A stretch of 64,000 nt of DNA from NCBI GenBank assembly GCA_047495785.1, contig JBLDXI010000054.1, forward strand, positions 1 to 64,000, written 5' to 3'. Positions 1,825 to 18,082 of the stretch are shown here, piece by piece (the stretch's first letter is position 1; each line of letters begins with the position of its first letter). The DNA is from Lepidodermella squamata (Eukaryota > Animalia > Gastrotricha). The position numbers and the translations under genes were made by a program. The notes beneath the pieces were generated by a model that ran no database searches, was not told the origin of the DNA, and was given only the letters and a program-made list of their open reading frames with translations.

Positions 1825-1827
1825 AGA

Positions 1828-2100: not shown

Positions 2101-2133
2101 TTTCACCTTATCTTATAAGCCTCACTGCTTTAA

Positions 2134-5100
2134 CTAAAAGAGGGAATCGCTACTTCTCATCAGCTGCATGAAATCAATCATGAAATGGCCGTGCGCGAAA
2201 GTGTTGATGCCATCATCACTGACCCATCGCTTATCATCATAGGGACACAGGGCAATCTTGGAACTTTGCATCGTAACTAAATTATGGGAGAATGATCGAA
2301 TCTGATTGAAATTTATATTGACTACTTTCTTGTTCTTCACGCAATCCCTGTAATGGTCGAATGTCAGCTTCGACTTCACACCCTGCCGCTTAACTCCCTT
2401 CGCCTTTTTTATTTCATCTTTTTCTGAGTACAAAATTGCATAGACCTTGGATCGTGCCCCGGCGAATTCTCGTATTACACGTCCCTTTGCTTCGTCTTTA
2501 AATACGCCGTTAGTTTTACAGTTGACAGTTGAGAATAGGAAGTGATCTTTAGGATAATCAGAGAAATCGAATAGGTTTTCGATGGGTTTCATGTCTGTGT
2601 AAACGTCTTCAGTTGTGATATGGTAGCACAACGAATCTGTGTCTGTGAAAAGAAGCTTAGCTTTGTCGCCGTACTTTCGTTTGATGACATTGTAGTGGAA
2701 GTCGTACATATGCACCTTGGACAAATCCAAAATGGCTGCTCCAACGATAATTGGTCGATCATAAAAGATCTCAGTTTTTGCCATTTCCACGCTGAACAGC
2801 TCGTCACTTATCTTCTTAGCGTCCTTGAATGTTGGTTTGTTTACTAGTTTCTGAAGCTTCTTAGGGCAAGTAACCAGTTTTAAGTCAATGCGATTCCGAA
2901 CGTTCTCACAAGTTTTACCGAAAATGACGTTATTCATCAGTTTGAAAAACCCCTTCTCAAATTCGTTGCTAGCCTCTTTTCGCTTTCGAGTATTGAATGC
3001 GATATAGGGCTCGGCCCAATTGCTCTGTTTGAACTTCAAAGCTCGGTGCACCTTTTTCAGAACTAAACCATTATCAAGAGCTTGCTGTAGCGCGCGATAG
3101 TGCATGACGTAATGTTTCTTGTCGTTCAGATTTTGTGTTAGCTTTTTCACCTTCGCCGGCCTGTTTAGTCCTAATTGCTTATGCAGATCTTGCATGTGAG
3201 GGCTCGGTTCGCAAAGAATATGCTCTGGACAGAACGGATAGTCATTATGTGAGTCATGAAGCCTTGCAGGATAGTCGATATCAACCTCCAGCATGTACCC
3301 GAATTCGTCTTTGGCCCCAAGTGACTTCACGAAATCTTTGGTGATTGCTTCAGGACCAATCCATTCGAAGTCTTTCTGCGGTAACCACTGGGTCATCGCG
3401 AAAGAATAAAGCGCGTTGGCGTCCCAATACATTATAAACGATTTCGGAGCATTTGCGTCATAGTCTGTCATACCTTCGTTATTAGCCTTCGCGTACCTCC
3501 CAGGAATAACAGCTATACCGCCTCTTATGCCTTTTTCAACGAATTCAAGCATCTCCTTATTATCAAAGAGATCCAGTTCAACACGTGTGTATTTCAGCAT
3601 CGCGTCCCAACTTAACCCAGGTGCACCTAAATAATGCGCCGGGTCCAGATCGTAATAGCTTATGCAGGTGTCTCGAAAACTGTCAAAACAATCTGCTAAC
3701 AAGAGAACATCTGTTTTCAAATACAGGTCGTGGTAGTCTTTCAGAGTTTTGCAATTCAGTTTTGACCAAACGGTTTGTGCGTGTTCATAATCCTCGTCAG
3801 ATATAGAAGTTATTTCGATTTTGTTATCATCAAGCGAACAAGAATTTAGTCTGTTTGAGAAATGCGACTTATTCGGTAGCTGAGTTTCATTCAGTTTGTC
3901 GAGGCTATCTATATAATCGTACGGATAAACTCCCTTTCGAAGCAGCAGGGATCTTTGTTCAGTTGTGAACTTAGAAAGCTGTTCATCAAAATGAGCGAAC
4001 CTCTTTCCCGATTTTTTCAGATTACTGACTATTTGGTCCAGGCTTTCACTCATAAACTGAAACGAATCGATAAATCGAAGTTTGCCTATACTAAAACTTG
4101 AATACTTTTCCGAGGAATTAGCTATGACGTCAATCGTCAACAGGTTTGGTCTTTTCTTTTTGTCTTCTTTTTTGAAATTTGCAATCTTTTCTCCATTGAT
4201 TTCGTTCACTACTTTTCCGGCTGCCTGCATTATCAAGTGCGAATCGTACCCACTCAGGTTATGAAAAACAACCGGGATGAAAGAATGCTTGAGATTCAAA
4301 TTCAGATTGCAGGCATTATGAGCAGCTCCTCTGAAACGGCCTGTAAGATGGTCATGATCGCGGACTTTATCGTCGCCCAAGGCGCTTCGGCAAACATGGC
4401 AGTGCTGTGCATTATCATAACTTTGTTGCTCTGGTTGAGATAACACCATGTCTTTATTGGTTTCCTGGATAAATTTCCTCAAACTGTATTGCTTTTTAAT
4501 CAAGAATCTCAGGAACTGCTCCGCACAATTTGCCCCTTCAAACTGCCAATACTTCGAACGGATCTCAGGTACCTTACTAGCCAGTAAACATCCGAAGGAA
4601 TTCGCAACATGCTTCTGATAAATCAAGGACCTACCCTTTTGAACATCGGAATTCGTTAGCGTAGTCTCCGCATCACAATAGAAAACAAACGGTACTTCAA
4701 GCTGCTTGTAGTAATTTTTGAAAATAACTCGGCTACCTTTCGGAGGAAACTTCACTATGACGTTGCCATTTACTATGCAATTATGCTCTTTAAGCTTTAT
4801 TTCGCTGTCGAATCCAGTCAGACACTGTAAGCACCAATGCTTTTTGTGCTGATCAGAACTAGGCAGCAACCGGCTCAAATTTTTTATCCAGCTGAAGTGT
4901 GCTATCACCTTAGCACCGTCTCTGAGAGTAGTTCGCAGTAGGTTAACTTCTTGGGCGTACGGTTTCTTCGACGCGTAGTATGAAATAAAGCGATGGCAAC
5001 CATCTTTTTCTTTGTATTCAATCACGTTGATCTTTATCCTATTCTGATCTTCAAGATTTGAAATATCGTTCCACGAAATGGGAAACTTGATACCGTCATG

Positions 5101-6177
5101 TTTCAGTTCATTTTTAAATAACTTGTACTTGGATGTTTCCTGTGCATTTTTATCTACTGGATGCAAGCAAGCCAGCATGCTCCAGATTATGCATTCATCG
5201 TCGGTGTTTTTAACATTTATAACGGCCTTTTTATCAGCAATAAACTTCGGTGTTGGAATGTAAGATCCTGTCCCTAACGGGCAGTAGCTGAAAGCACAAA
5301 CACGGAGTCGCGAAATGTTTTGAAAGATCCATCCGGAGCCGCGCTGCTCGTAATTCTCAATGGCACCACCAAGTTGAGAGAAGTGTTGGTCTACAACGCT
5401 CCCTATGTCATCATATTTCCTGATAACTGGGGCAGCCTTTACAGCGGAAGACCATTTATGTTCTGATTTACTATTGTTGTCTTTTTTCCAATTCAAATCA
5501 GCGTTAAACACGATTTTGATGTTATCATTTTGCTCTAATTTTTCTTGCACGTAGTTAACAACTGATTCCCTAGCCTTTTCGGTAAATAGATGGAAATCAC
5601 TTCCTGAATTATGAGCTTCAATGTCTAACCTATAAAGGATATTCTTGAAATGCTCGGGATTTTTCTGCTCATTAAATTCCATGTAATTGTTATCCTCAAG
5701 AGAGTTAATCCGCTCGATATAATTGTAGCCTTCGGCAATCAACTTGTTGTACGTTGGTCCACCCCATTTGATGAATTTCAAAGTCTTAGGATTTATGACA
5801 TGATTTTCTTTCTGCCCTCTGAACACCATTTCACCAGCAGCATTCAAGAAATAGCCATCTTTACGCAGCCTCTGATAGTCCTGGCTGCCCCTTTTTATCT
5901 TGCTCACACCTCGTTTCATAAGCTGATTATTCGCATCGTCATAGAAAAACTCCTTTTCAAGTTTTTTGAAGTTGGACGAACCGATAGAAATATATTTGTT
6001 TGTGATAGGATTTAATACTGTTTTCCGTTGGGTTCTCTCGTAAGGCATCCCACCCTTCGTCCAACGGTTATCTTTTAATTCAAAACCCTTCCTCAATAGC
6101 GCATTGTATGCTCGGCCACCAACCTTAATACGACGACCGTTAGGTCCCATTACATTGGTTTCACTGTTGTCGGTCAT
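2134..6177 (-). CDS. polB: Protein-primed family B DNA polymerase (terminal-protein region, vOTU-like domain, EndoVII-like Zn insert, exonuclease, polymerase)
   Basis: YCDAET (ExoI), FHNLSGYD (ExoII), KGVYPY, YWDANALY (motif A), KLMNNVIFGK (B), TDTDS (C). CHVC..DHDHLTG..HNACN EndoVII insert. DECIIWS...HFSW vOTU-like Cys/His. Confidence 0.97.
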   Translation of the reverse strand: MTDNSETNVMGPNGRRIKVGGRAYNALLRKGFELKDNRWTKGGMPYERTQRKTVLNPITNKYISIGSSNFKKLEKEFFYDDANNQLMKRGVSKIKRGSQDYQRLRKDGYFLNAAGEMVFRGQKENHVINPKTLKFIKWGGPTYNKLIAEGYNYIERINSLEDNNYMEFNEQKNPEHFKNILYRLDIEAHNSGSDFHLFTEKARESVVNYVQEKLEQNDNIKIVFNADLNWKKDNNSKSEHKWSSAVKAAPVIRKYDDIGSVVDQHFSQLGGAIENYEQRGSGWIFQNISRLRVCAFSYCPLGTGSYIPTPKFIADKKAVINVKNTDDECIIWSMLACLHPVDKNAQETSKYKLFKNELKHDGIKFPISWNDISNLEDQNRIKINVIEYKEKDGCHRFISYYASKKPYAQEVNLLRTTLRDGAKVIAHFSWIKNLSRLLPSSDQHKKHWCLQCLTGFDSEIKLKEHNCIVNGNVIVKFPPKGSRVIFKNYYKQLEVPFVFYCDAETTLTNSDVQKGRSLIYQKHVANSFGCLLASKVPEIRSKYWQFEGANCAEQFLRFLIKKQYSLRKFIQETNKDMVLSQPEQQSYDNAQHCHVCRSALGDDKVRDHDHLTGRFRGAAHNACNLNLNLKHSFIPVVFHNLSGYDSHLIMQAAGKVVNEINGEKIANFKKEDKKKRPNLLTIDVIANSSEKYSSFSIGKLRFIDSFQFMSESLDQIVSNLKKSGKRFAHFDEQLSKFTTEQRSLLLRKGVYPYDYIDSLDKLNETQLPNKSHFSNRLNSCSLDDNKIEITSISDEDYEHAQTVWSKLNCKTLKDYHDLYLKTDVLLLADCFDSFRDTCISYYDLDPAHYLGAPGLSWDAMLKYTRVELDLFDNKEMLEFVEKGIRGGIAVIPGRYAKANNEGMTDYDANAPKSFIMYWDANALYSFAMTQWLPQKDFEWIGPEAITKDFVKSLGAKDEFGYMLEVDIDYPARLHDSHNDYPFCPEHILCEPSPHMQDLHKQLGLNRPAKVKKLTQNLNDKKHYVMHYRALQQALDNGLVLKKVHRALKFKQSNWAEPYIAFNTRKRKEASNEFEKGFFKLMNNVIFGKTCENVRNRIDLKLVTCPKKLQKLVNKPTFKDAKKISDELFSVEMAKTEIFYDRPIIVGAAILDLSKVHMYDFHYNVIKRKYGDKAKLLFTDTDSLCYHITTEDVYTDMKPIENLFDFSDYPKDHFLFSTVNCKTNGVFKDEAKGRVIREFAGARSKVYAILYSEKDEIKKAKGVKRQGVKSKLTFDHYRDCVKNKKVVNINFNQIRSFSHNLVTMQSSKIALCPYDDKRWVSDDGINTFAHGHFMIDFMQLMRSSDSLF

Positions 6178-6269
6178 GATTGTATATATTATACTAAGAA
6201 AATAATCTTTAAGTAATTTTCCGCAATTGAAGAAAATCTTATATAGTTTTTTTCTGATGATAATATATA

Positions 6270-6569
6270 ATGACTACAAACACGATTAAGCAAAGAGGTC
6301 GCCCGAAGAAATATCTGACTGAAGAAGAACGCGAGACAGGCTATCGTGATCAGCATCGTATAGCTTGCAAAAACTACTGGAAGAAAACTATGGAAGTTGT
6401 TAGAGCAAGTCGTGGACAGGGAAAATGTCATGAAGTAACTTCACAAATGGAAGGAGCGATCACAAGTGACAGAATGTGTGAGCCTAAGCCTGAAAACCTT
6501 ACGACGAAGGATATAGAGGAAATTATAAATCAAATGTTGGCAACAAAACTGCAAAAATTGCTCTCATAG
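6270..6569 (+). CDS. Small AT-hook DNA-binding protein, divergent from pPolB
   Basis: KQRGRPKKY AT-hook followed by a charged helix. Confidence 0.7.
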   Translation: MTTNTIKQRGRPKKYLTEEERETGYRDQHRIACKNYWKKTMEVVRASRGQGKCHEVTSQMEGAITSDRMCEPKPENLTTKDIEEIINQMLATKLQKLLS

Positions 6570-6594
6570 GCTTCACTGTGCGGTCATGATTGAA

Positions 6595-8016
6595 CTAATC
6601 CAACAAGTTATCAGCGGGCTCCCAAGTCGGCTTATCATATCCTGCCCATTTGACGTAAACCATTTCTTTACCTTTAACTTTCTTCCTTCTCAAAATCTTT
6701 TCAACCCGGTAAAGGTTTTCTTGCTGTTGGGAAGATTTCTGCAATTCCTGTTCGTAAAAGCTACCTACTACTGGTTCACCATCTAGAGCCTCGATTTTAT
6801 AGGTTCTAGGAATGGTTTCGTTAACCTTGACGACTTTAAGAAGCTCTTCACTCCATGAAGGGTGGAAACCTTTTTCAAAGGTCTCTTTCAGTCGGCTGAT
6901 CCTCACAATGTCACCAAGAGCGAACTTGGGCTTACGTAACTTTTTTTCATCTGATTCCGCGTACAAATTGTTGTGAACGATGTCTCTATTCTTTGGATCT
7001 ATCGCCTGAGTTGGCGTCATTCGAATCGATCTGTGCTTAGTAAGGTTGTACTCTCGAACTAGGTCATCTAATATTGCAACCCAATTACGTGAGTTGTTAA
7101 GTGTAAAGCGTTTCCACATTCTAGTTTTAAGAGTCCTGTTAAACCTCTCGATCATAGGGTTATGAAAATTTTCATAGGTCGAGTACCGATTCACCTTATT
7201 TGCTTTCAACCATTTAGTGAAGATTGAATTATAAAATTCACTACCCTCATCGACCCAAATATTTTTAGGCTTTCGTCGGCTTGTCTTAATAACTGATGAG
7301 AAGGCATCGAAAACACTTTTTGCGTCTTTTGATTTCAGTGGGACGGCCCATGCATATCTGCTGAAGCAGCATATCACGGTCAAAATGTACTTATAGCCAT
7401 TATTGTCATCGGTCAAGTCGTTCATGAAGACAATGTCCATGCCCCATGTGTCGTCAACGTTATGCACATAAACGCGACGTCTTGGAAACCGCTTTCTTGC
7501 GGGTTTATGAAGCTCCTCAGCTAATGTTTCAAACTTCATTTTGCTAACTGTTTCTGATCGCGGCGGCTCTTGTTTTGTCTTTCGCTTCGGAATTTGTTGC
7601 GAGTAGCTAACAGGTCTCCTATCTCGAAGAGCCATGCCTTTCCCTTGCAGATGGTCAGCGATTCCACCTTCAACGAACGTTTTGTAGACAAATGCTGCCA
7701 TAGCCCTCTCATAACCACTTTTCGATCGATCACTAGCAATCCTGAGTGCCTTGTCTGCAAGAATTCTATCGCTAACGGTGCGTCGCTCTCTGTCTTTGTA
7801 AAAGTGATAAGCAGCGTCATGTTCTCTGGCTGCCTCGTCCAACTCATTTATACCTCTGTAGCCCTGGCTCATTCTTTGAACAAAATGTGTTCCTGGGCCA
7901 GCGTAGCTATATGACTGCTTATTGTTATAAGACCCTCCAGGAACGGTTTCTCCTTGAACGGGATAACTCGGTAAATGGAATTCCACCGGCAAATTGTTAA
8001 TTATTCTGTCAAACAT
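6595..8016 (-). CDS. Fusion of parvovirus VP1u-type phospholipase A2 (PLA2X), retroviral-type DDE integrase and chromodomain
   Basis: YAGPG Ca-loop and DEAAREHDAAY PLA2 motif; WGMD..WVDEGSEF..IERFNRT DDE triad; YRVEKIL..YVKWAGY..TWEP chromodomain. Confidence 0.95.
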   Translation of the reverse strand: MFDRIINNLPVEFHLPSYPVQGETVPGGSYNNKQSYSYAGPGTHFVQRMSQGYRGINELDEAAREHDAAYHFYKDRERRTVSDRILADKALRIASDRSKSGYERAMAAFVYKTFVEGGIADHLQGKGMALRDRRPVSYSQQIPKRKTKQEPPRSETVSKMKFETLAEELHKPARKRFPRRRVYVHNVDDTWGMDIVFMNDLTDDNNGYKYILTVICCFSRYAWAVPLKSKDAKSVFDAFSSVIKTSRRKPKNIWVDEGSEFYNSIFTKWLKANKVNRYSTYENFHNPMIERFNRTLKTRMWKRFTLNNSRNWVAILDDLVREYNLTKHRSIRMTPTQAIDPKNRDIVHNNLYAESDEKKLRKPKFALGDIVRISRLKETFEKGFHPSWSEELLKVVKVNETIPRTYKIEALDGEPVVGSFYEQELQKSSQQQENLYRVEKILRRKKVKGKEMVYVKWAGYDKPTWEPADNLLD

Positions 8017-8052
8017 TATTCATTAGGACTTGAAATTCTAAATAAAGAGCAA

Positions 8053-8745
8053 ATGATCAATTGGGACAGCATCGTTCAATCACAACGACAGGAGTACAAA
8101 AATGGATCTCCCTTTTTCCCTCAGCATCCTTCTCGATGTCTTATTATTGGACCGTCCGGGACCGGAAAGACTTCAGATCTGCTGACAATACTGCATAACT
8201 CCTTTTTTCACAAGATCTACTTATATAGTAAAACTCTTGATGAGGACAAGTACGAGTACCTGATTAAGCTTCAGAAACAGAAGGAAGACATTCTTTCCAA
8301 GCAAGGAATTTCAGTAAACCTTGTTCACTCTTCCAATGACATTTCTGAAGTCATGCCTCTTGAAGGCCTAGATAAAAGTTACCAGCATGCTTATATATTC
8401 GACGATATTTGTATGGAGCAAAAGAGGCTGCAAGAAACACATATCGGTGCAATGTGGATAAGATGCCGTAAGTACAACGCGTCAGCCTTTTATCTTTCGC
8501 AGTCATATTTTAAGATCCCAAAGGCAATTAGGGATAATGCCGATTTTGTTGTGCTGAAGAAGCTGGCTGACAACAGGGAGCTGAGCATAATTCATCGAAT
8601 ATACGCCCCCTCAATTAAGACAACTGAATTTTTTGCCAAGTACAATGAAGCCGTTAGCCTTCCTCATGGTTCGTTTATCATTGACAGTCAAAGCAAGCCA
8701 CAGTGTCTACGACTTAGAGCTAATTACGCTTCAATCTTCGCCTAA
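8053..8745 (+). CDS. FtsK/A32-like DNA packaging ATPase
   Basis: Walker A GPSGTGKT, Walker B YIFDD, RKYN..LSQSYFKIPKAIRDN. ATG 8053 chosen because TCTA precedes it. Confidence 0.95.
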   Translation: MINWDSIVQSQRQEYKNGSPFFPQHPSRCLIIGPSGTGKTSDLLTILHNSFFHKIYLYSKTLDEDKYEYLIKLQKQKEDILSKQGISVNLVHSSNDISEVMPLEGLDKSYQHAYIFDDICMEQKRLQETHIGAMWIRCRKYNASAFYLSQSYFKIPKAIRDNADFVVLKKLADNRELSIIHRIYAPSIKTTEFFAKYNEAVSLPHGSFIIDSQSKPQCLRLRANYASIFA

Positions 8746-8945
8746 TCATTTTTAACTTTTAAAAATTAGTTTAAATTATCTATCAAACAGTTTGAATTAT
8801 CTTGGCTTTACTGATTACCTCCAGTATAAGATGAGTTCAACTGAGCGTTCAATAGGCGATCATTAGGCGTTCAAGAAGCGATCATGTGGCTAACGAGGAG
8901 CGACCGCTGGGCGAAAAAGGAGCGATTTATTCTAGCCAGAGTGAT

Positions 8946-9989
8946 ATGCCGCTACGCGAATTAACAACTGATGAACAAATTCGAATTCTTGAAGATTTAG
9001 ATAAGCAGGAGAAGATGTACGACCGACACTTGGCCATGGTTAAAGGTGATGTATATGCTTTAAAGTATAAGCATAGTGTAAATGTTGAACCCGATCCCCT
9101 TACAGCTTTGCATGAGACTTACAGGCAGATGCCAACTGTAGAGGCAATAAGATCCGTTGCCAAGGAGCTCAAACAAACAGCAAAGAGAAGCTTACCAACA
9201 GCTAATCACCCGCATCACCTAGAAGCGGTATTACCAAAGGCGGAACCGACAACTGAAGAGGCGAAGGAATCAGTGGAGGACATAGTTTTGAAGAGACATA
9301 ACTTCCCCACAGCTAAAGAAATTGAAGAGGCTGGGGCTGACCCCGCGCATATTATTGTATCTCTTTCGCACTATAATAAAAATGTGTTGGGCTCCCAACT
9401 AGCTCAGCTCACTAAAAAAGGATACAAAGACTCTCCACAGTATCAATCGATTCAAAATGATATACAGATTTTGAAAAACTTCAAGAACTCGTTGCTTGAG
9501 ACATTTGAGAATCAAAGGGTGCTACTTGAGAAAACTGGTACAGGTATATCCAACAATTATTTGAAGATTGGTAGGTTTTACGCCAGAAAAGACGACATAA
9601 AGCGAGGGGTTTTAAGGATTCGCAAGAAGAATAAAGGCAAAGTGCAAGGTTTAGCCGATATAGACATAAGTGATGGTGTCAAACAATTGCTCTTGAAAAG
9701 GTACAATCCGAAGGTGAACTTTTCCAAGCAAGACTATGATCAATACCAAAAAATTTGTGAACTGACTGGATATCGACCAAAACCCCATTCTAAAATCTGG
9801 AACAGAATTTACGTGACTGATGTTGTTGATGCCCAAAAGAGGCTCGTAAACGCGATTGGTGAAATCAGAGCGGGAAACAATAACGCTGAAATATATAACG
9901 AAGTTGTTAGTATTGCAGATTTTCTTTTGAAGAACAATAGATTGACCAAAGCTGAATACGAAAATCTAATAACAATGGTAAATGGGTGA
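8946..9989 (+). CDS. Conserved Polinton core protein (PZ-like)
   Basis: C-terminal IGEIRAGNNN motif typical of Polinton proteins; located between ATPase and penton; ATG 8946 preceded by TCTA. Confidence 0.7.
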   Translation: MPLRELTTDEQIRILEDLDKQEKMYDRHLAMVKGDVYALKYKHSVNVEPDPLTALHETYRQMPTVEAIRSVAKELKQTAKRSLPTANHPHHLEAVLPKAEPTTEEAKESVEDIVLKRHNFPTAKEIEEAGADPAHIIVSLSHYNKNVLGSQLAQLTKKGYKDSPQYQSIQNDIQILKNFKNSLLETFENQRVLLEKTGTGISNNYLKIGRFYARKDDIKRGVLRIRKKNKGKVQGLADIDISDGVKQLLLKRYNPKVNFSKQDYDQYQKICELTGYRPKPHSKIWNRIYVTDVVDAQKRLVNAIGEIRAGNNNAEIYNEVVSIADFLLKNNRLTKAEYENLITMVNG

Positions 9990-10722
9990 TCCAATATTTC
10001 TGCCTTTGGAATATTACTGCAATAACAGATCGGACGCCAGCAACGTCATCGATCGTTACCTAAATGATAAGATCGATTTCACAAAGCGCAGCATCGCCGT
10101 TTCATATATTCACTTTTACGATGTTTTTTATAATGTATCACAGGCTTCAGGTAATAGTAAGCTCAGATATAAAGATCCAGAAGATGCGACTTTTGAAATA
10201 CGATTTCCTGATGGAACCTTCACTTTTCGTGATTATAACAATTATATTCACTTTGTTATGAAAGGAAACGGCCATTTCAAGACCATCGATGGCTCAGAAG
10301 TTTACGGCATAAGCTTATCTGTCAATACTGTTCTGAATAAACTGAGCTTTCGAATTCAACCAGGTTACGCTCTTCTGATCGAGCATGATGCTACGTCTGA
10401 ATTTCTAGGTGTAGACAAAGGCGAATTCCGAGCAGATTTTAATGGGCAACATATTCCTAACATCACGATGTCAAATGACTCAATGTTTGTTCACTGTAAC
10501 GTCGTCAATAATAGCCTAGTCCCGGAGGTTAGTGATGTCATCTTCACCTGTCCGATTAACAAAAATTTCGGTCAACACGTTAACATTGTTCCAAATGAGA
10601 AACGTTACTTGTCCTGTACGAATGCTAATACACAAAACATAAAAATAACGCTCACCACCCAGGCTGGTGCAACACTGGAGATGACTGAAAGAAAATGGGG
10701 TATTGGTCTAGATATTCGCTAG
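9982..10722 (+). CDS. Minor capsid protein (penton, single jelly roll)
   Basis: FYNVS..N..LRY, FPDGTF, VHCNVV, ITLTTQAG pattern; beta-rich, 246 aa. Confidence 0.85.
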   Translation: MGDPIFLPLEYYCNNRSDASNVIDRYLNDKIDFTKRSIAVSYIHFYDVFYNVSQASGNSKLRYKDPEDATFEIRFPDGTFTFRDYNNYIHFVMKGNGHFKTIDGSEVYGISLSVNTVLNKLSFRIQPGYALLIEHDATSEFLGVDKGEFRADFNGQHIPNITMSNDSMFVHCNVVNNSLVPEVSDVIFTCPINKNFGQHVNIVPNEKRYLSCTNANTQNIKITLTTQAGATLEMTERKWGIGLDIR

Positions 10723-10745
10723 CTTTTTCTAGTTACTTTGTTATA

Positions 10746-11045
10746 ATGAAAAATCGCAGAACTAAAGCATATGTCGTAGGACGCGGTTACGTAGACATCG
10801 CAAGAAATATGCTCGACAAATTGACTGGTGTCTTACCGGTTCAGACTTTAGCCAAATCAGCTCTTTCAAAGGCAGCGGAAGTTGCCGGTGACAAAATAGG
10901 TGCATATGCCGCAAATAAACTTGCAGACAAAGTTATGCCGGCAAAGCCAGCTGAGCGCTCTATTCAGGCTATTGAGGAGCTTGAGAAGAAAATCAAAAGA
11001 GACATCGATAATTACACCGGAACAGGCTTTAAGCTGATACGCTAA
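10746..11045 (+). CDS. Small basic Ala/Lys-rich virion core protein (pVII/pX-like)
   Basis: Basic N-terminus, VVGRG and YTGTG adenain-like sites, amphipathic helices; lies between penton and major capsid. Confidence 0.7.
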   Translation: MKNRRTKAYVVGRGYVDIARNMLDKLTGVLPVQTLAKSALSKAAEVAGDKIGAYAANKLADKVMPAKPAERSIQAIEELEKKIKRDIDNYTGTGFKLIR

Positions 11046-11064
11046 ATATCTAATGCATATATAA

Positions 11065-12438
11065 ATGCTTCAATCCGAAATAGTGAACTGTCTCTTTGAG
11101 AGCCCGACCATAGATGATCGGCAGTTCGAAAGGAAAAGCTGGGCCGAGGTTTGTGCAACAAGCTTTATACAGGATCAGCCCTCTCAGCCTTCTCGCCTTA
11201 TCTTTTCTACATATAACTTGCGTGAGTTGTTTATATTGCCGAGGGAAGCCTATATCCAGTTGACTGTTGAGTTCCGACGAAACGATAGTCAGGCTTTCAA
11301 AGCAACCGACAAGTACGCAATTAGGAACCATGTTATATCCATGTTTGAAACAGTTGAAGTGCAAGTAGGTGATAATGATAACCAGGTAGAGCAAACACGT
11401 TATAACGAACACTGGAGCTCGTTGCTGGGCGTTATTCACTGGTCTGATGACTATGCGCGAAGTCTTGGGGAAGAATCACTTTTCGCCAGAGACTACCCAG
11501 CCCATGTCAATTATGATATGACTCCTGAAGTTACAGCAGAAAGTTTCGACCCTGCGAAGAACAGCTGCAACGAGGGACTACTCTTGAGATCTTTGTATGT
11601 TAAGGATCATAAGATGGTTGTCACACTTTACTTAAGGGACATTCCTTTCTTCCAAAATTATTTTGGGATGTGGACCAAGGCGAGATTTCGTGTGATATTA
11701 ACACCAAATTACACCAAACCCATAGTCGCAGCCATAGGGAAAAACGATGATTTGCCGGAAGGGATGCATTTCCAAATTTCGTCAGCTTATATGTTTATTC
11801 CGGAAGTCACATTGATGCCTGAAACTAGAGCACGCATTTTGAAAGCCTTCAATACGGGTCTCACGAAACTTTACAAATGGCAATCGCTAGAATGCTTTCA
11901 GAGCCCCCAGTTTGCTGTGAATAGTTCATCGGTACAATGGACAATCACATCTGAGATGAAAAAACCAAGCTGGCTGTATATTGTATTCTTGCAAGACTTC
12001 TCAGACGCAGAGTATCAAACAAAACTGACACAAATTTACACTCAGTGGAATATATTCAGCTACTCTCTCATGATAAACAATAAGGAGGCGTTTGCCGAGG
12101 CCAACATGAACTTTTCCCGCTTCAACGCTCACCGGCTCTATAACTATATTAAGGAAAACATGAACCATTTCAATGATCGTGAAAGCACGAACACTGGTAG
12201 TCAGCTTAGTTACCTTGATTTTTGTCGATTTTACCGTTTCCTGGCATTCAATCTGGAAAGTGTAGATGCCGGTGCTATATATAATTCACGCGGTGACCAA
12301 AGCGTGAGCGTCACATTCAAAGCTAGAATCAGCCCTGTCGATAAGCCATTAGTTATGTTTTGTTTTATTTTTAGAGAAAAAGAAATAGGCTTCAACTACA
12401 AAGACGACAAGCTCGAGATAAGCCTTAACATGCTCTGA
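11065..12438 (+). CDS. Major capsid protein (double jelly roll, hexon-like)
   Basis: 457 aa, beta-rich; LPREAYIQLTVEF, SMFETVEVQVG and KPSWLYIVF segments typical of Polinton capsids; context. Confidence 0.88.
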   Translation: MLQSEIVNCLFESPTIDDRQFERKSWAEVCATSFIQDQPSQPSRLIFSTYNLRELFILPREAYIQLTVEFRRNDSQAFKATDKYAIRNHVISMFETVEVQVGDNDNQVEQTRYNEHWSSLLGVIHWSDDYARSLGEESLFARDYPAHVNYDMTPEVTAESFDPAKNSCNEGLLLRSLYVKDHKMVVTLYLRDIPFFQNYFGMWTKARFRVILTPNYTKPIVAAIGKNDDLPEGMHFQISSAYMFIPEVTLMPETRARILKAFNTGLTKLYKWQSLECFQSPQFAVNSSSVQWTITSEMKKPSWLYIVFLQDFSDAEYQTKLTQIYTQWNIFSYSLMINNKEAFAEANMNFSRFNAHRLYNYIKENMNHFNDRESTNTGSQLSYLDFCRFYRFLAFNLESVDAGAIYNSRGDQSVSVTFKARISPVDKPLVMFCFIFREKEIGFNYKDDKLEISLNML

Positions 12439-12459
12439 ATTTTCTAACTTAGAATAATA

Positions 12460-13038
12460 ATGACTAAATACATTCCATTCGACATTAAACTAACAGAGAC
12501 ACAGAGAAGAGCATTTCAAAAACCAGGCCAAGTTGTATTGCGTTTCACAATTGATCAGCTTCTTGCAGATCCAAATGGTTCCAAGTTGTTGTTGACGCAA
12601 AGGCAGATAGATAAAGTAATGAAGAGCAAACAAAGGATGAAAGGGCTTGATATTAAACTGAGCAAAACTCAGCTCCGGAAGAATCAGTCTGGCGGGTTCC
12701 TGTTACCAGCGCTTGCCGCAGCTTCCAAATTTATAGCACCTGTAGCTGTTGCAGCGCTGAGCGGCCTTGCCAGTTCCCTCGCCAGTACAGCAGCTGACAA
12801 GATCGTAGGCAAAGGCGTGTCGCTGACAATACCAAAAGAGGATTTAAATGAACTGCAAAAGGCGGTTTCGCTTCTGGAATCCCGACAAATTGTGCCTGCT
12901 GGCAGTAGTAAGGCAATTAAAAGCCATATAGAGCAACAGGGTGGAGCTTTTATCTTGCCGCTTGTATCAAGCTTACTGGGTGCATTCCTTCCGACCTTAT
13001 TCGGAAAAGGGGTTTATATGCCGTGGGAAAAAAACTGA
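12460..13038 (+). CDS. Virion core / membrane-active precursor (protein X-like) with multiple adenain-type sites
   Basis: QSGG-FLLP, IVGKG, QQGG-AFILP and LFGKG flank hydrophobic/amphipathic segments. Confidence 0.75.
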   Translation: MTKYIPFDIKLTETQRRAFQKPGQVVLRFTIDQLLADPNGSKLLLTQRQIDKVMKSKQRMKGLDIKLSKTQLRKNQSGGFLLPALAAASKFIAPVAVAALSGLASSLASTAADKIVGKGVSLTIPKEDLNELQKAVSLLESRQIVPAGSSKAIKSHIEQQGGAFILPLVSSLLGAFLPTLFGKGVYMPWEKN

Positions 13039-13481
13039 CAAATACCGGGTTTTATCCCCTATCCAATCTTGAGATAACCGAAGCTTTGAAGAGGCTCCTC
13101 GGAAAAGACTTCAAGGGCTGTTATGCTCGGGATGACCTTCCTGATAAACTTGAACGAGGATATTACGTCATTAACCTGGACGATAAAGTTAACCGCGGAA
13201 GTCATTGGGTCTCAATGGCTGTGAAGTCGACTGAAATAATCTACTTCGATAGCTTCGGGTTTATATGCCCTAATGAGATCATTAAGCGTCGCGGCAAACG
13301 AGTTATTTGGTATTCCACACATGATATACAACATCCTGGCTCTGTTGCATGTGGCTTCTATGCCATTTACTTTCTAAGAGAATTAGGTAAAGGTAGGGAT
13401 AAGTTAGCTATTTTGCTAGACTTCAATAACACCGGGTCACCGCACAATGATGACTTACTGAAAAATCTATTGTTAAGCTAG
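13023..13481 (+). CDS. Adenain-like maturation cysteine protease; no ATG before the catalytic His, probably made by -1 frameshift from the upstream ORF
   Basis: GSHWV, YFDSFG and IQ....ACGFY catalytic motifs; overlaps the upstream ORF in the -1 frame across A AAA AAC TGA. Confidence 0.93.
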   Translation: MGKKLTNTGFYPLSNLEITEALKRLLGKDFKGCYARDDLPDKLERGYYVINLDDKVNRGSHWVSMAVKSTEIIYFDSFGFICPNEIIKRRGKRVIWYSTHDIQHPGSVACGFYAIYFLRELGKGRDKLAILLDFNNTGSPHNDDLLKNLLLS

Positions 13482-13483
13482 AT

Positions 13484-13663
13484 ATGTATTGCCTGCATTG
13501 TAGGAAAAACACTAAATCAGTGAATGAGCAGCAATTAGCCACTCGTAATAACCGAGCTCTCATGACAGGATCTTGTACACTCTGCGGTATGACAAAGTAT
13601 AAATTCATAAGAATGTTAAAGAGAAACGCCATCGTAGATAAAAAGGATGCAAGCGTCCGTTGA
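13484..13663 (+). CDS. 59-aa zinc-ribbon protein (DUF5679-like), absent from the ORF track
   Basis: MYCLHCRKNT...TRNNRALMTGSCTLCGMTKYKFI; two CxxC pairs; TCTA 14 nt upstream. Confidence 0.85.
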   Translation: MYCLHCRKNTKSVNEQQLATRNNRALMTGSCTLCGMTKYKFIRMLKRNAIVDKKDASVR

Positions 13664-14153
13664 AGATGAATTGAAGAGACTGATGGATAATTTTGAGAAT
13701 TCTAAATCAGTGAGAAAGACATTTTCTACCATGCCTTACGTGTATTGCGATGCGTGTGCCACAGAACTTTTGCTTGACGAAAGGGCGAATTTCAACGTAT
13801 GCCCAAACTGCGGTTTATGTTATCCATACTGTGAGCACTCCCCGCCATTCAAATTAGTACCTTACAAACGAAAATGGCATTTAATGACTGTAATTAAAAA
13901 GCGCGGTATAGAAATGCTACCTCCTCAACTTGAGAGGCTGATGTCGAGCTTTATCAAGTTTGACTCGGGCTATGCAGAACTCTTTCCCGATCAAAATATG
14001 ATGCACCTTGACTTTGTTATCAAAGCTCTGGCTCAGGAACATGGATACGACCTTGTGGCACAGAGCGTACACGTGAAATCGGTTAACGATAAGACGCTGA
14101 GGCAATGGCGGAATAAGTATAATCTAGTCATCGCTCATTATGAGATCGAATGA
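13647..14153 (+). CDS. VLTF3-like (poxvirus A2 / NCLDV late transcription factor) zinc-ribbon plus helical protein
   Basis: CDAC..VCPNCG zinc ribbon, then YKRKWHL (cf. YxRxxHF) and a helical C-terminal region. Confidence 0.65.
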   Translation: MQASVEDELKRLMDNFENSKSVRKTFSTMPYVYCDACATELLLDERANFNVCPNCGLCYPYCEHSPPFKLVPYKRKWHLMTVIKKRGIEMLPPQLERLMSSFIKFDSGYAELFPDQNMMHLDFVIKALAQEHGYDLVAQSVHVKSVNDKTLRQWRNKYNLVIAHYEIE

Positions 14154-14799
14154 AATATTCATTCCAAGTGAATGGTTTGAAAATACTCGACAGGCAGCAA
14201 TTTATTTGAGGGCAGACGGCAGTACTCCATTCGCGGCAAACCTAAACGCGAATAGCTACTGCATCGAAAATTTGGGCGGCCCCGTTTTCGACAACGATGC
14301 TGTAAGCAAAAATTGGGTTGAGCGAAGTTGTTTAATGATTCAATCCGATCAGACTGTTGACTTTAAAAATGCTAGGCTCACGAACATCCATCCACCAATA
14401 AATCCAAACGATGGCGCGATTCGGGCTTCCAGATTGATATGCTCTGGCAAGGTTTCTCTTGCGCGCGAGAATAAGCTAAGTTTTGATAACATGATTTCCG
14501 GAATGCCTGAAGTAAGCGATAGCTTAGTGTTTCGGGCAGACTTAACAGCCAGAGTGGAAATGTGGTTCCGGCTGGACGACAACAGAGCCACATCCTTCAC
14601 CCTTGATTTCTTCAAAAACAACGGTAACTTGTTCTCGAAATACTTCAACTATAACAATGTTAATTTGGAGAGCAGCAATGAATACTGTTCCTTTATAGAG
14701 CGATTCCGATTGAATGATAGCTTAACGGTTATTGCAGCAGCTGACGAAAGCATACAACTGTCATACATTTTGATTATTTCTAACCTAAAGAATACGTGA
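14140..14799 (+). CDS. Fibre/spike-like protein
   Basis: YLRADGS then two IxNLxxPxxxxDA-type shaft repeats and a beta-rich C-terminal head. Confidence 0.7.
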   Translation: MRSNEIFIPSEWFENTRQAAIYLRADGSTPFAANLNANSYCIENLGGPVFDNDAVSKNWVERSCLMIQSDQTVDFKNARLTNIHPPINPNDGAIRASRLICSGKVSLARENKLSFDNMISGMPEVSDSLVFRADLTARVEMWFRLDDNRATSFTLDFFKNNGNLFSKYFNYNNVNLESSNEYCSFIERFRLNDSLTVIAAADESIQLSYILIISNLKNT

Positions 14800-14813
14800 T
14801 AAATATATTCAGA

Positions 14814-15395
14814 ATGAATGACAACCAGCTAAAAACAGTAGATAGTATTTACCCCACTGCTCCTAGACTACAAATGTCTTCTACTCAAGAGTTCAGGCTT
14901 GCTGAGCTCCGGCGCCTAAATGATGTTTTCAACACAGAAATATCGAAAAGAAAGAAGCTTTATAATAGGTATTCCCGTTTTTCGTCAATTTGCAAAGCTA
15001 CTATTCATGGAATAACGGGCGGCACAACATCGCTTGCTATTGGTGGAATCGCACTACTGTCACTTGGCCTCCCAACCGGTATAATGTTGGAGATTACTGC
15101 AGCTTCGGGCGGCATGGTCATACTAGCTCTCAACCTGCTTGACTTAAAGTTCGAAAGGAAAGCCGAAAAACATGAAAGAATCGCCACTCTTGCCATGTCG
15201 AAAGCCAACTCAATAGGCGACATGATCAAAACAGCCCTGGAAGATAACCACATCAGTGACACTGAGTATCAGGTTATTATGAGAGAAAACGAGAAATTCC
15301 ATGATATGAAAAAGTTGCTTCAGAAGAGTTTAAACTGTGACCGCACGCAGATATTTCTTGAGGAACTGAAAAAGCACGGTGTGAACGTCCCTTGA
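14814..15395 (+). CDS. Polinton membrane protein: coiled coil, hydrophobic hairpin, N-terminal PTAP motif
   Basis: IYPTAP, FRLxxL..E...R....RY, two Gly-rich hydrophobic helices, KHERI..LA..K.NSI...ALED..IS..EY. Alternative GTG start at 14796. Confidence 0.8.
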   Translation: MNDNQLKTVDSIYPTAPRLQMSSTQEFRLAELRRLNDVFNTEISKRKKLYNRYSRFSSICKATIHGITGGTTSLAIGGIALLSLGLPTGIMLEITAASGGMVILALNLLDLKFERKAEKHERIATLAMSKANSIGDMIKTALEDNHISDTEYQVIMRENEKFHDMKKLLQKSLNCDRTQIFLEELKKHGVNVP

Positions 15396-15396
15396 G

Positions 15397-15651
15397 CTAG
15401 CGAAAAGGCGAGTAAAATATCACACGTTTCTTTGGTGTTCTAACTACTTTAGCATGATTGCCTTTGATTTTCGAAGGCTTTTTAATTCTATCCCTATTCA
15501 CAAAATACCCTAGCAACGCGACGATTACACTCAATGCAACAAAAATGCGTTGAAGCTGGGTGTTCGTCCTTAAGCAGTCGATCTGAAGTTCTCTTACAAG
15601 CACCTTAATATATGAGATTATTTCTTCTTGGGCACTCGAGTAAGTATTCAT
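15397..15651 (-). CDS. Small single-pass membrane protein
   Basis: IFVALSVIVALLGYFV helix followed by a basic tail; tightly packed with neighbours. Confidence 0.6.
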   Translation of the reverse strand: MNTYSSAQEEIISYIKVLVRELQIDCLRTNTQLQRIFVALSVIVALLGYFVNRDRIKKPSKIKGNHAKVVRTPKKRVIFYSPFR

Positions 15652-15669
15652 TAAGTATTAAAACGATTT

Positions 15670-16005
15670 TTATTTTTCTCGTCGCGCCCTCATTTCAGCT
15701 ATGAATTTCTCTATATCTGACTTCCTTTTCTGTCGCCGTTCATACAGCTCAGCTTTGCGCCTCTGGCTCTGTAACTTACGGTCGTTATCTTCTTTTTCCC
15801 TTGCAGTCAGCAAATCGCTGTATTTCTGTTCAATGACAGCCTTCTCGTTCTCCAAAGTCTTAATACGGGTATTTGAGGACTGTCTCTTGAGCGAGGAATA
15901 CTGATCGCTGATAATCTCAACTTCCTGCTTCAGTTTGTTGATATCTTCATCCTTCTCATCGACAATTTCATCGACCTCTGTGTATGAAAGAAATCCTTTC
16001 TCCAT
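15670..16005 (-). CDS. Charged coiled-coil protein
   Basis: E/K/R-rich heptads; AT-rich leader before the ATG. Confidence 0.7.
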   Translation of the reverse strand: MEKGFLSYTEVDEIVDEKDEDINKLKQEVEIISDQYSSLKRQSSNTRIKTLENEKAVIEQKYSDLLTAREKEDNDRKLQSQRRKAELYERRQKRKSDIEKFIAEMRARREK

Positions 16006-16012
16006 GCTTATA

Positions 16013-16270
16013 TTATTTACCGAGAAATCTTCTTCTTAGCAGGTAAGCTTTCTTGCCGCCGACATGGGTGACATCATTTGGAATCAGACTGACGTTGATG
16101 CCACCGCCCTTCAACGATGAGAACCGTTGTTGTTTGCCTAAATGATAGTAAATCGTGCCTCTGCTGAGTCCCACTTCAGCTGCGATTTCATCTACTGTCT
16201 TGGAGCTATTCTGATATTCATGGATTGCTTGGCTGATTTTGTCTGGATTTATTGCCTTGCGACGAAGCAT
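16013..16270 (-). CDS. Helix-turn-helix DNA-binding protein
   Basis: TVDEIAAEVGLSRGTIYYHL is a canonical HTH. Confidence 0.8.
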   Translation of the reverse strand: MLRRKAINPDKISQAIHEYQNSSKTVDEIAAEVGLSRGTIYYHLGKQQRFSSLKGGGINVSLIPNDVTHVGGKKAYLLRRRFLGK

Positions 16271-16578
16271 CTTATATTTATTTGAGAAATTTAAATATTT
16301 AAATATTTCAATGTTCCATAGTTCAAATGTTCAAACTAAATAAAGGATGTCATCAGCCAATTTATATATTAAAATATTTTAACATTTGTATGTTGAAATG
16401 CGGATTGTTACTTCTGCAATCGATTGGCTTCAACGCCCGATGGAGTCACGTCATGAAAAGGAGAAGCTGCAAGAGATGTTGCTTCCCTCAAGTAACTCGC
16501 TGATTTGCGTAAATGAACAATGAACTATTCTTAAATTGAGGTAAATTTAAAAGTCAAAATGGGATGCAGTCAACAATT

Positions 16579-16872
16579 TTAGTCCTCGTCACTTGATGGC
16601 ACAATGTCGTCAAATACAGTTAGAAATTGCGTAAATGCTTTTCGGGTTTCTTCATCATCAAAGGGGTACCGTTTAACTGCAGTTTCGACGCGTCTTCGCT
16701 CGATGTCTTCGTATGCAGATCTGCGCTTCTTTATCCTGCAGAATCGAGATACTCTCGAATAGTGTGCCAAAGCATCTTCGATGCGCATTCTCGGAAACAG
16801 ACTTTCCATTGCACGAACTTCTCGGTTGGGTTCGTCCCTAGTAGGCCTGATACTTTTGACATAGGTGCTCAC
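16579..16872 (-). CDS. Hypothetical Polinton protein
   Basis: Protein-like charged composition with acidic tail; start codon uncertain. Confidence 0.45.
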   Translation of the reverse strand: MSTYVKSIRPTRDEPNREVRAMESLFPRMRIEDALAHYSRVSRFCRIKKRRSAYEDIERRRVETAVKRYPFDDEETRKAFTQFLTVFDDIVPSSDED

Positions 16873-16982
16873 ATGGAAACAAAACGATGACAGGATGGGA
16901 CCATATAAGGTTCTGCGATGGTCCTGCCAGTCATCATCAAGATCAGGGGACGTTGTTAGGCAGTCCTGGTCATCGCTTACAG

Positions 16983-17249
16983 CTATGCATAACGAAGTCG
17001 AGGTTCAATCACGTATTTATCATACAACAATTTTTTACCAGAGACACCTCCTGCAGGTAGCCAAACTTTAACTTCTGCAACATTAGTACCATCTCTGTCC
17101 GCCAGTGCTGAAATTCGCTGTTGCTTGTTCGGTCCTGTCCAGTGGTAAGCTAATCTACACTCCATGCTTTCAGATGATGGGCAAGACTTTAGAAAAGTTA
17201 CTACGCGTGCAAAATACAGGCGGCATACTGATAAGCACAGTTTGATCAA
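16983..17249 (-). CDS. Hypothetical protein
   Basis: ORF co-oriented with neighbours; no motif; start uncertain. Confidence 0.3.
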   Translation of the reverse strand: MIKLCLSVCRLYFARVVTFLKSCPSSESMECRLAYHWTGPNKQQRISALADRDGTNVAEVKVWLPAGGVSGKKLLYDKYVIEPRLRYA

Positions 17250-17899
17250 TACACCTAGGGCGTCGTTGCCTTGGAAACTCCATTAATATTTAAACTTTTA
17301 TCAATACATTGGCTAATGGAAATTCAATTATGTTTCTGATTCATCGACACCCCATGATGAAAGCATTGCGCATTCATGTTGAAGGTATTGAATTATTCAT
17401 GAAAATAAGACGGTATTGTTCGAACAAAATCAATAGAAAGAACTATGCAGGTATGGAAACATATGTTGATTGACATTAAAGGATGCGGCTAGACATGCAC
17501 TCAACTAATTCGTAAGCTAACCCTGTGTACGAACGATTCACAATACATTTGAACAGCTGTGTAATTAAAGATTGTTTAGGTCTGAAAGGAAAGAAATTAA
17601 AATAAAATCGCCTGTTCGGAGATGAAAATATGAGAAGATCCATAGATTGGTGCCTTTGAGAGAGGATCTACCAAATGGCGCGAACCCCAGGGCACCTCCC
17701 TCGATGTTCAGCGCCTGGGACGCCATTTTGTTTCAAGGCATTTACACCGCGTCAATTGAATCACCCTATTTCAGTTTTCAGGTCATCGATCATCGCTGCC
17801 AGCTGAACCAGTCGTGCGATGAGACACTAGGAACTGAATTTCGCTTGAAGAGAAAGATTGAAACCACTCCCGTTATTATCGATTCATCATCGCTTGAAA

Positions 17900-18082
17900 A
17901 GGGGCGGGGTTTGAACTACCCGGTCCGCCCGGTGGTGCGGGCCCTACCCCACCAAACCCAGGCGGACAAGACCCCCGCCCATTTACGCGGTGTCACTTGA
18001 ATTTCAATTTAATTTAATTCGAGTTATCAGGTCATATTCACCTGGCCGGCTGCCCGGGCTAGTATCGGTATTTCTTACTACT
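17900..18082. repeat. Right terminal region (presumed TIR) with GC-rich nested hairpin and ACTACT terminus
   Basis: Nested complements GGGCGGGG/CCCCGCCC, GTCCGCC/GGCGGAC, GGTGG/CCACC. Terminus reads AGTAGTAAGAAATACCG on the minus strand. The partner TIR is not in the window. Confidence 0.65.

Follow-up and report, generated by a model that had tools for sequence, protein, structure and literature searches.

Gene content of the element

The window, by which we mean the whole 64,000-nucleotide stretch analysed here, carries a 15.1 kb element that its gene content assigns to the Mavericks/Polintons (Polintoviricetes), in a likely animal genome. Beside the virion-module genes, which are given with their upstream boxes below, the element contains the following:

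6177-2134, minus strand: pPolB gene, with a mimivirus-late-type motif upstream
6270-6569, plus strand: AT-hook gene, with a mimivirus-late-type motif upstream
6595..8016, minus strand: PLA2-like, rve integrase and chromodomain gene (Pfam), without a TCT motif at the usual distance
12921..13481, plus strand: adenovirus-type protease open frame, in frame -1 relative to the X-like gene
13647..14153, plus strand: VLTF3-like protein, 168 aa, with a zinc ribbon and one helical (cyclin-like) domain, without TCT upstream
16005-15670, minus strand: coiled-coil gene, with a mimivirus-late-type motif (2 mismatches) upstream
16270-16013, minus strand: HTH gene, with a mimivirus-late-type motif upstream

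Pfam assigned rve to the integrase (E 1.1e-12), which shares one gene with a chromodomain and a PLA2-like domain, Pox_A32 to the A32-like ATPase (E 5.9e-9), DUF5679 to the zinc-ribbon gene (E 1.2e-13) and, just under the cut-off, Peptidase_C5 to the protease (E 5e-4), and both major capsid homologues that were scanned match DJR-like_dom (E 7e-7 and 1e-6). The Pfam scan of the element's ORFs gave no polymerase match for pPolB; its 1347-aa ORF, in which family-B DNA polymerase motifs can be seen, aligns to a relative at 39% over 1167 aa. The PZ-like gene owes its name to the initial annotation and to synteny, with no Pfam family above the cut-off, and the likely penton gene has weak tblastn matches in relatives. 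Neither an RNA polymerase nor a capping gene is present among the element's ORFs, no VLTF2 or PCNA-like partner was found in the element, and Rfam returned zero matches across 900-18300. With respect to terminal inverted repeats and a target-site duplication, no long inverted repeat joins both ends of the window copy, whose ends are undefined.

The protease frame has no ATG upstream of its conserved N-terminus and no TCTA, and a slippery heptamer lies directly before the stop of the X-like gene, while no stimulatory hairpin was found 3' of the slippery site (z -0.48). The protease is likely produced by a -1 frameshift from the upstream X-like gene, and would lack a box of its own because it would be read from the X-like mRNA. 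In the available text of PMC11071296, predicted slippery sites lie in penton and hexon-protease, not in X-protease.

Two flavours of a TCT-core box

The tetramer TCTA recurs before the genes of the virion module:

8037..8040, plus strand: TCTA, 12 nt before the A32-like ATPase ATG 8053 (gene 8053-8745)
8931..8934, plus strand: TCTA, 11 nt before the PZ-like ATG 8946 (8946-9989)
9965..9968, plus strand: TCTA inside the PZ-like coding sequence, 13 nt before the likely penton ATG 9982 (9982-10722)
10728..10731, plus strand: TCTA, 14 nt before ATG 10746, the predicted start of a small core-like gene (to 11045)
11049..11052, plus strand: TCTA, 12 nt before the major capsid ATG 11065 (11065-12438)
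12443..12446, plus strand: TCTA, 13 nt before the X-like ATG 12460 (12460-13038)
13466..13469, plus strand: TCTA inside the protease coding sequence, 14 nt before the DUF5679 zinc-ribbon ATG 13484 (13484-13663)
14123..14126, plus strand: TCTA inside the VLTF3-like coding sequence, 13 nt before the fibre-like ATG 14140 (14140-14799)
14779..14782, plus strand: TCTA, 13 nt before a putative GTG start at 14796 and 31 nt before the in-frame ATG 14814 (gene to 15395)

The spacer before the penton gene contains an out-of-frame ATG, and that before the major capsid gene is occupied by a 3-codon ORF. All nine TCTA-to-start distances claimed in the initial annotation were reproduced on recomputation. 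Its remark that copies sit inside upstream coding sequence is true for four of them, three of which read as Asn-Leu, AAT CTA; CTA makes up 42 of 353 Leu codons. In a scan of 256 tetramers over 30 four-position windows (7680 tests) upstream of 11 plus-strand starts, TCTA at 11-14 nt came out on top, with 8 of 11 starts (p 1.2e-13, Bonferroni 9e-10). At two of these starts (ATPase 8053 and core 10746) the same ORF holds an earlier ATG; the ATPase start has the same initiating Met in 17 of 17 close homologues, and scoring both starts as misses leaves 6 of 11 (p 2e-9, Bonferroni 1.6e-5). At the same distance TCTA precedes none of the 138 other plus-strand ATGs and two of the 112 minus-strand ATGs; in the host part it precedes 20 of 1694 ATGs and none of 25 ORFs of at least 150 aa. 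The TCTA signal is thus confirmed as real, position-fixed and specific to the element.

TCTA is the late tetramer of CroV and mavirus, as had been proposed (available text of PMC8547959 and PMC5294985). The AT-rich context ascribed to it stood for the upstream side (0.85 over 6 nt, against 0.63 for 15 other TCTA) but not for the downstream side (0.66 against 0.64). TCT at 9-19 nt is absent before the protease, integrase, 2100, 16809, 15651 and VLTF3-like genes. ATCGT does lie 11 nt upstream of the VLTF3-like and 15651 starts (n=2), with 38 occurrences in the whole element.

A second set of boxes precedes four other genes:

6183..6207, minus strand: pPolB box of mimivirus late type with 1 mismatch, its end 5 nt before the gene's start
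6245..6269, plus strand: AT-hook box of mimivirus late type with 1 mismatch, directly adjoining the gene's start
16009..16033, minus strand: coiled-coil box of mimivirus late type with 2 mismatches, its end 3 nt before the gene's start
16273..16297, minus strand: HTH box of mimivirus late type with 1 mismatch, its end 2 nt before the gene's start

The AT-hook and pPolB copies stand back to back. At no more than one mismatch, the published mimivirus late consensus has only three sites in the 15.1 kb element, all 0-5 nt before a start codon, and two in 46.5 kb of host DNA; it matches three non-virion genes (pPolB, AT-hook, HTH) and none of the nine TCTA sites. The pattern TTTCT-N4-W5-ATA finds four of four sites at starts and none in the host, a count that is not independent, the pattern having been derived from those same genes. 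This late motif of mimivirus and megavirus is common to Zamilon, and the one-mismatch criterion is that of PMC11464507, as far as its available text goes; unlike those systems, the window element has no known viral factory or helper, and its virion-gene boxes lie 4-7 positions off the consensus. The TCT(T/G/C) variants had been set against the late virion genes, yet it is those of pPolB, AT-hook and HTH that match the mimivirus late motif best, so this contrast is unsupported. Since the variants are also of late type, we read a single TCT-core promoter in two flavours, common to 12 genes (13 with the putative GTG start), and these boxes are likely gene-by-gene promoters of giant-virus late type.

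A VLTF3-like protein and the motifs of relatives

The proposal that ORF 13647-14153 encodes a VLTF3 relative is borne out, for a short form, by Atlas, Foldseek and family profile matches. Atlas placed 27 of 30 matches in Pox_VLTF3 clusters (best 0.95), and the best named match in Foldseek BFVD is a Pandoravirus VLTF3-like protein (E 3.9e-4). In a PDB fold search the top 13 rows all come from chains of Pol II initiation complexes, with a best E of 0.026 and none at E 0.001 or better, and a PDB sequence search with the family profile gave zinc-finger-type matches only. A profile library search returned nine homologues, six of which were aligned after a repeat-like protein, an 1881-aa protein and a 74-aa fragment had been dropped; a word-index search for homologues returned none. 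The zinc ribbon has four invariant Cys in the family alignment, and Pfam found A2L_zn_ribbon in four of seven family members (one above the cut-off) and Pox_VLTF3 in two of seven (both under it), the window protein itself falling below Pox_VLTF3. By these matches the 168-aa protein is VLTF3/TFIIB-like in nature, and it would likely act as an activator of late promoters.

Distant relatives share the promoter architecture: across 23 aquatic loci, one per 70% ATPase cluster, the consensus with a TCT core stands before 36 of 297 ORFs, against 1.0 in shuffles, the motif not being significant in 13 of the 23 representatives. One locus, L015, has TCTA 14-17 nt before all four listed ORF starts, and its ATPase clusters with those of long contigs that are likely animal; the window element, which bears the VLTF3-like gene, falls in a distinct clade. 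Both placements come from a quick ATPase tree with an unresolved base, from which L013, L030, L109 and L113 were left out. In the partial stretches of the aquatic relatives, none of 100 ORFs selected from 12 loci matched Pox_VLTF3, and an A2-profile gave nothing under E 0.1 over all loci. A Pox_VLTF3 search of whole records, covering 2 of 50 loci, gave no match. Because these VLTF3-negative relatives carry the motif, the motif alone is no pointer to an element's own factor. Insect-type loci place TCAGT 0-20 nt upstream of 22 of 135 ORFs (2.4 shuffled) and, in five representatives, before 6 of 68 (1.4 shuffled).

The relatives obtained are distant only, 25-36% identical to the window ATPase where that was the query; close-family ATPases are 58-72% identical, and capsid, ATPase and VLTF3 queries of viral, metagenome and genome contigs yielded no DNA of close relatives. 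A copy about 2% divergent in run X1 leaves TCTA 8931 and 9965 unchanged in fully listed contigs and has two changes in the capsid spacer, a comparison over the 40 of 258 matches listed that is too thin to carry weight.

Candidate readers of the boxes

Our preferred reading, which we put at a probability of roughly 0.45, is that the element's own VLTF3-like factor activates the TCT boxes in the nucleus with host RNA polymerase II. Expression would begin with the VLTF3-like gene, which lacks a TCT box and would rely on another signal or on read-through. TFIIB docks on the polymerase through its zinc ribbon; that of the VLTF3-like protein would do the same and position the polymerase on the TCT box. 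Transcription would start about 12-16 nt downstream of the box T, directly at the ATG or shortly ahead of it. Such starts would account for distances that vary over 4 nt and for the harmlessness of the extra ATGs in the penton and capsid spacers. The two flavours might set two levels or timings, one for replication and regulatory genes and one for virion genes, and the protease, translated from the X-like mRNA, would need no box. Counting for this reading are the tetramer statistics with their host controls, the mimivirus-consensus sites at starts, the architecture shared with distant relatives, the VLTF3 kinship, the absence of polymerase and capping genes from the element and the host-type ends in run X3. 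Counting against it are the aquatic relatives in which the motif occurs and no VLTF3 was found, the 13 of 23 representatives in which it is not significant, the missing VLTF2 and PCNA-like partners, the Pfam and PDB matches that fall short of their cut-offs and the scarcity of AATAAA close behind the genes.

Known systems speak on both sides. In the available parts of the published accounts, VLTF3 is kept in mriyaviruses and ariadnaviruses, which like the window element lack a viral RNA polymerase and whose transcription is inferred to be nuclear, and this counts for self-activation; those viruses are Nucleocytoviricota that keep VLTF2 beside VLTF3, whereas the window holds an rve/pPolB Polinton in which no VLTF2 was found, and this counts against. 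One proposal for integrated mavirus has a CroV late factor move into the nucleus and attach to promoters of this kind (available text of 10.1101/068312). The CroV late promoter, with copies in mavirus, type-4 EMALEs and ChlorV, is described in the available sources as TCTA shortly before starts, in mavirus's case of a small integrating pPolB/rve virus, much as in the window. The window element differs from CroV and mavirus in being a likely animal Polinton that encodes its own VLTF3-like protein, with TCTA limited to virion-module genes and AT-rich upstream only; that CroV is AT-enriched downstream of TCTA, in the portion of its description available, counts against self-activation, as does a pPolB under a late-type box, here as in helper-dependent virophages. 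It is conceivable, and we hold this only tentatively, that the element turned virophage-type helper-activated promoters self-starting, with a captured minimal TFIIB-like VLTF3 steering host Pol II.

VLTF3 occurs in a polintovirus subgroup (stony corals) and in other PLVs, according to the available text of PMC11131425, PMC8502044 and 10.64898/2026.06.19.733378, in whose main text the word 'promoter' is absent. Compared with the coral polintoviruses, the window protein is the 168-aa short form and its element a distinct ATPase clade. TCTA promoters and VLTF3 in Polintons have thus each been published; their apparent joint occurrence in an animal element was not found in print, and our literature search, which covered the main texts of largely non-subscription papers, turned up no account of TCTA or of late promoters in an animal Polinton.

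The main rival of the self-activation model is a helper giant virus: the late machinery of a co-infecting nucleocytovirus would read the same promoters, and the VLTF3-like protein would only redirect or compete with the helper factor. We consider this unlikely, though it has points in its favour, as the small-virus cases tested are all helper-driven in the available sources (mavirus with CroV, Zamilon with megavirus), entomopoxvirus-associated Polinton-like viruses exist in animals (available text of PMC11296320), and the replication genes too carry a late motif that is also present in VLTF3-negative aquatic relatives. A helper would, however, supply VLTF3, so an extra reason is needed for why the gene, which has at least 6 homologues, stayed intact in the element, and no giant-virus genes occur among the 25 host ORFs of the window (two Pfam-scanned). 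The sole RNA ends seen also speak against it: at the right end of the element, run X3, whose RNA identity is a guess, shows poly(T) ends at 14 and 20 nt beyond AATAAA signals, as in a 3' end of host type. AATAAA close downstream is absent for most element genes.

TCTA might instead be a short-leader core promoter for host general factors alone, a counterpart of insect-Polinton TCAGT, with the VLTF3-like gene a passenger or in another role. TCAGT is the arthropod initiator, and its place near the starts of insect-type loci indicates that initiators of host type, with short leaders, are in use among Polintons; this reading is nevertheless improbable, for none of the 25 host ORFs has a TCTA box, and matches to two independent giant-virus late consensuses together with a late factor would be coincidence.

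More improbable still is an RNA-level signal, be it an acceptor or branch point for splicing a single long late transcript, as in adenoviruses, or a cue for translation re-initiation. Three of nine copies read TCTAG and two TTCTAAC, resembling the splice acceptor and branch-point consensus, and the genes abut or overlap; but penton and capsid have no AG between TCTA and ATG, acceptors require no fixed distance to an ATG, and the motif also precedes divergent, non-adjacent genes. No same-strand joint appears among the matches listed in four runs, of which X2-X4 hold small shares of the element, and an X3 contig spans 12078-12532 without a gap (at thin coverage, and with X3 taken as RNA by guess). 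Coincidence, or a side effect of stop codons and AT-rich spacers, has next to no probability: the tetramer is short and two starts were picked downstream of the first ATG, but the tetramer scan and the ATG controls reject it, and no TCTA copy overlaps the upstream gene's stop.

If the self-activation reading is true, VLTF3 would be a candidate for the late factor that rouses integrated mavirus, and the DNA element read by VLTF3 would be defined. The finding bears on which late factor of the giant virus does the nuclear activation proposed for integrated mavirus, and the 168-aa protein with two flavours of short promoter offers a minimal pair that can be tested in reporters. TCT-type versus TCAGT-type Polintons may provide a sequence marker for two transcription strategies. 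For animal Polintons, the question it bears on is how capsid genes are expressed and whether a helper virus is needed; on the preferred reading, its own late-type boxes and its VLTF3 relative would let this element switch on its capsid genes without one.

Element layout and host flank

The Maverick/Polinton carries a plus-strand virion module flanked by minus-strand genes. A terminal inverted repeat was searched for in the element and none was found, so its ends are undefined. The features are as follows:

1828 to about 16800: Maverick/Polinton
2134-6177, minus strand: pPolB
Left part, after pPolB: AT-hook gene, then PLA2-rve-chromo integrase
Plus-strand module, first half, in order: A32 ATPase, PZ-like, penton-like, core-like, major capsid, X-like (12460-13038)
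Plus-strand module, second half, in order: protease (frame 12921-13481), DUF5679 zinc ribbon, VLTF3-like (13647-14153), fibre-like, membrane protein
Right part, after the plus-strand module: small minus-strand genes, HTH among them

The PZ, penton, core, X and fibre genes have no Pfam family, and their names derive from the initial annotation and synteny. In a quick tree that leaves the base unresolved, the ATPase and its close homologues (58-72% identical) form a separate clade. At 18000-64000, the flank contains ankyrin genes and a large family of intronless genes resembling ligand-gated ion channels, arranged in tandem and present on both strands. Because of these channel arrays, an animal host is likely but not proven.

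Two flavours of TCT box

An unbiased scan of 11 plus-strand starts placed TCTA at 11-14 nt at the top of 7680 tetramer/window combinations. The motif precedes 8/11 of these starts (p 1.2e-13, Bonferroni 9e-10), against 0/138 other plus-strand and 2/112 minus-strand ATGs in the element, and 20/1694 ATGs and 0/25 ORFs in the host part. All nine TCTA-to-start distances reported initially were correct on recount, and the AT-rich context claimed for the motif holds upstream but not downstream. The ATPase start is backed by 17/17 close homologues; within the TCTA set, the core start and the GTG at 14796 are both putative.

The initial annotation had treated the TCT(T/G/C) variants as separate from the late class, a division that we abandon, as those of pPolB, AT-hook and HTH match the mimivirus late consensus. 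With the consensus and 1-mismatch criterion as given in the accessible part of PMC11464507, both strands of 15.1 kb of the element contain exactly 3 sites, ending 5, 0 and 2 nt ahead of the pPolB, AT-hook and HTH starts, respectively. The 16005 gene shows 2 mismatches and the TCTA genes 4-7, while 46.5 kb of host DNA contains 2 sites. Both flavours contain TCT as their core, with its T 15-22 nt 5' of the start; virion genes carry TCTA, and replication and regulatory genes the mimivirus form. Judged by sequence, both flavours are giant-virus late-type. Available portions of the literature describe the TCTA late tetramer in CroV and mavirus (PMC8547959, PMC5294985), and this promoter form in EMALE04 and ChlorV as well. 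At 6183-6269, the back-to-back pPolB and AT-hook promoters form a 23-nt inverted repeat (83%).

The VLTF3-like protein and candidate readers of the boxes

The 168-aa ORF at 13647-14153 has 9 library matches, 6 of which were aligned (26-44% identity, four invariant cysteines). Pfam A2L_zn_ribbon was detected in 4/7 family members, and Pox_VLTF3, below cut-off, in 2/7. The predicted structure (pLDDT 75, pTM 0.59) suggests a zinc ribbon and a helical domain. Two BFVD structure matches reach E 0.001, one of them carrying the name VLTF3-like, and VLTF3 and TFIIB entries are numerous below them; no PDB match reaches this value, and the top 13 PDB rows are Pol II initiation-complex chains, taken to be TFIIB. 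Moreover, 27/30 Atlas hits fall in Pox_VLTF3 clusters. We accept the initial assignment of kinship to VLTF3. The accessible parts of PMC11131425, PMC8502044 and 10.64898/2026.06.19.733378 already report VLTF3 in polintoviruses.

Summed over who reads them, we put the probability that the boxes are promoters at about 0.85. Tentatively, we favour self-activation, in which the VLTF3-like protein, itself produced without a TCT box, would likely recruit host Pol II to the boxes, and transcription would likely begin at the ATG or just ahead of it. This is modelled on the proposal, in the accessible text of 10.1101/068312, that a late factor enters the nucleus to act on integrated mavirus, except that there the factor is CroV's. 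It also agrees with the retention of VLTF3 by putatively nuclear viruses without an RNA polymerase of their own, as partially available sources describe. It is rather unlikely that a helper giant virus reads the boxes instead, and less likely still that they are an initiator read by the host alone. An RNA-level signal is improbable, because penton and capsid lack an AG between motif and start.

Run X3 is RNA by guess (no listed sequencing run is recorded as RNA, and X3 is labelled as an organism other than X1). X3 has loose poly(T) ends at 16234 and 16257, which follow AATAAA signals of the minus strand by 14 and 20 nt. On that guess, these are host-type 3' ends, placed at the element's right end and not at virion genes. 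An X3 contig over 12078-12532 has no gap, and such contigs have no power to show starts; no same-strand joint occurs among those listed for the runs and contigs. The stretch 16234-16600 has far deeper X3 cover than the rest, with a poly(A) end beyond AATAAA. Near 16330-16400, the copies present in X1, X2 and X4 diverge. A repeat or an abundant RNA from the terminus is a possible reading of this stretch, which contains AT-rich palindromes at 16282-16312 and 16366-16385.

Protease frame and boxes in related loci

The protease is the sole virion-module enzyme without a box and without an ATG ahead of its conserved N-terminus. Its frame is -1 relative to the X-like gene, and a slippery heptamer sits directly ahead of the X stop (13028-13038). 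The protease could be scored in 52 loci, this one included: 11 have the -1 overlap, 9 of them with the heptamer (the window and relatives' loci L021, L022, L101, L102, L107, L108, L110 and L112); the others comprise 2 in-frame fusions (L103, L105), 4 +1 overlaps and 35 separate genes. A run X2 contig spans the junction uninterrupted, which makes assembly error unlikely. The search for a stimulatory hairpin at the window's slippery site was negative. The layout points to a likely programmed -1 frameshift, conserved in Polintons, which would account for the protease's missing promoter; our literature search found no such conserved frameshift.

Late promoters of the TCTA and mimivirus kinds are known from virophages, and VLTF3 from some Polintons, each on its own. 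In the literature searched (articles without supplements), we found neither TCT-type late promoters in an animal Polinton nor their link to a Polinton's own VLTF3. The box finding is real and testable.

Capsid, ATPase and VLTF3 queries of viral, metagenome and genome contigs found no close-family DNA. Distant relatives fall into two sets, which we label aquatic AT-rich and insect-type (our own labels, not host records). Across 90 aquatic loci, which are redundant (54 in one cluster), TCTA at 11-14 nt precedes 16/180 and 82/823 ORFs, compared with 3.4 and 17 after shuffling; for the TCT-core mimivirus form, the counts are 24/180 and 146/823, compared with 0.4 and 3.5. With one locus per cluster, the counts are 21/297 versus 6.3 and 36/297 versus 1.0, respectively. 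TCT is individually significant in 10/23 aquatic loci. In contrast, the 14 insect-type loci are enriched not for TCTA at 11-14 nt (4/135 versus 2.7) but for TCAGT (22/135 versus 2.4), which replaces TCT boxes 0-20 nt 5' of many starts in L101-L112, L007, L009 and L010.

In the short locus L015, whose ATPase falls in a clade with those from long contigs, TCTA stands 14-17 nt ahead of each of the 4 listed starts. Ahead of most virion-module genes, L021 (7562-14392) has a lineage-specific version of the box, long, T-rich and terminating in TGCTAATATA. The PLA2-like domain is joined to the integrase here (6595-8016) and in L015, within the X-like gene in insect-type loci, and beside DUF5679 in L022. 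The insect-type Polinton L112 (VBOA01000002.1) lies on a contig assigned to a bacterial metagenome-assembled genome, where it is probably a binning contaminant.

No VLTF3 was found in these relatives' loci, which are partial. Together with the boxes in aquatic loci, this suggests, at the sequence level, that the box architecture is old and widespread in this branch, and that an element-encoded VLTF3 is not required everywhere.
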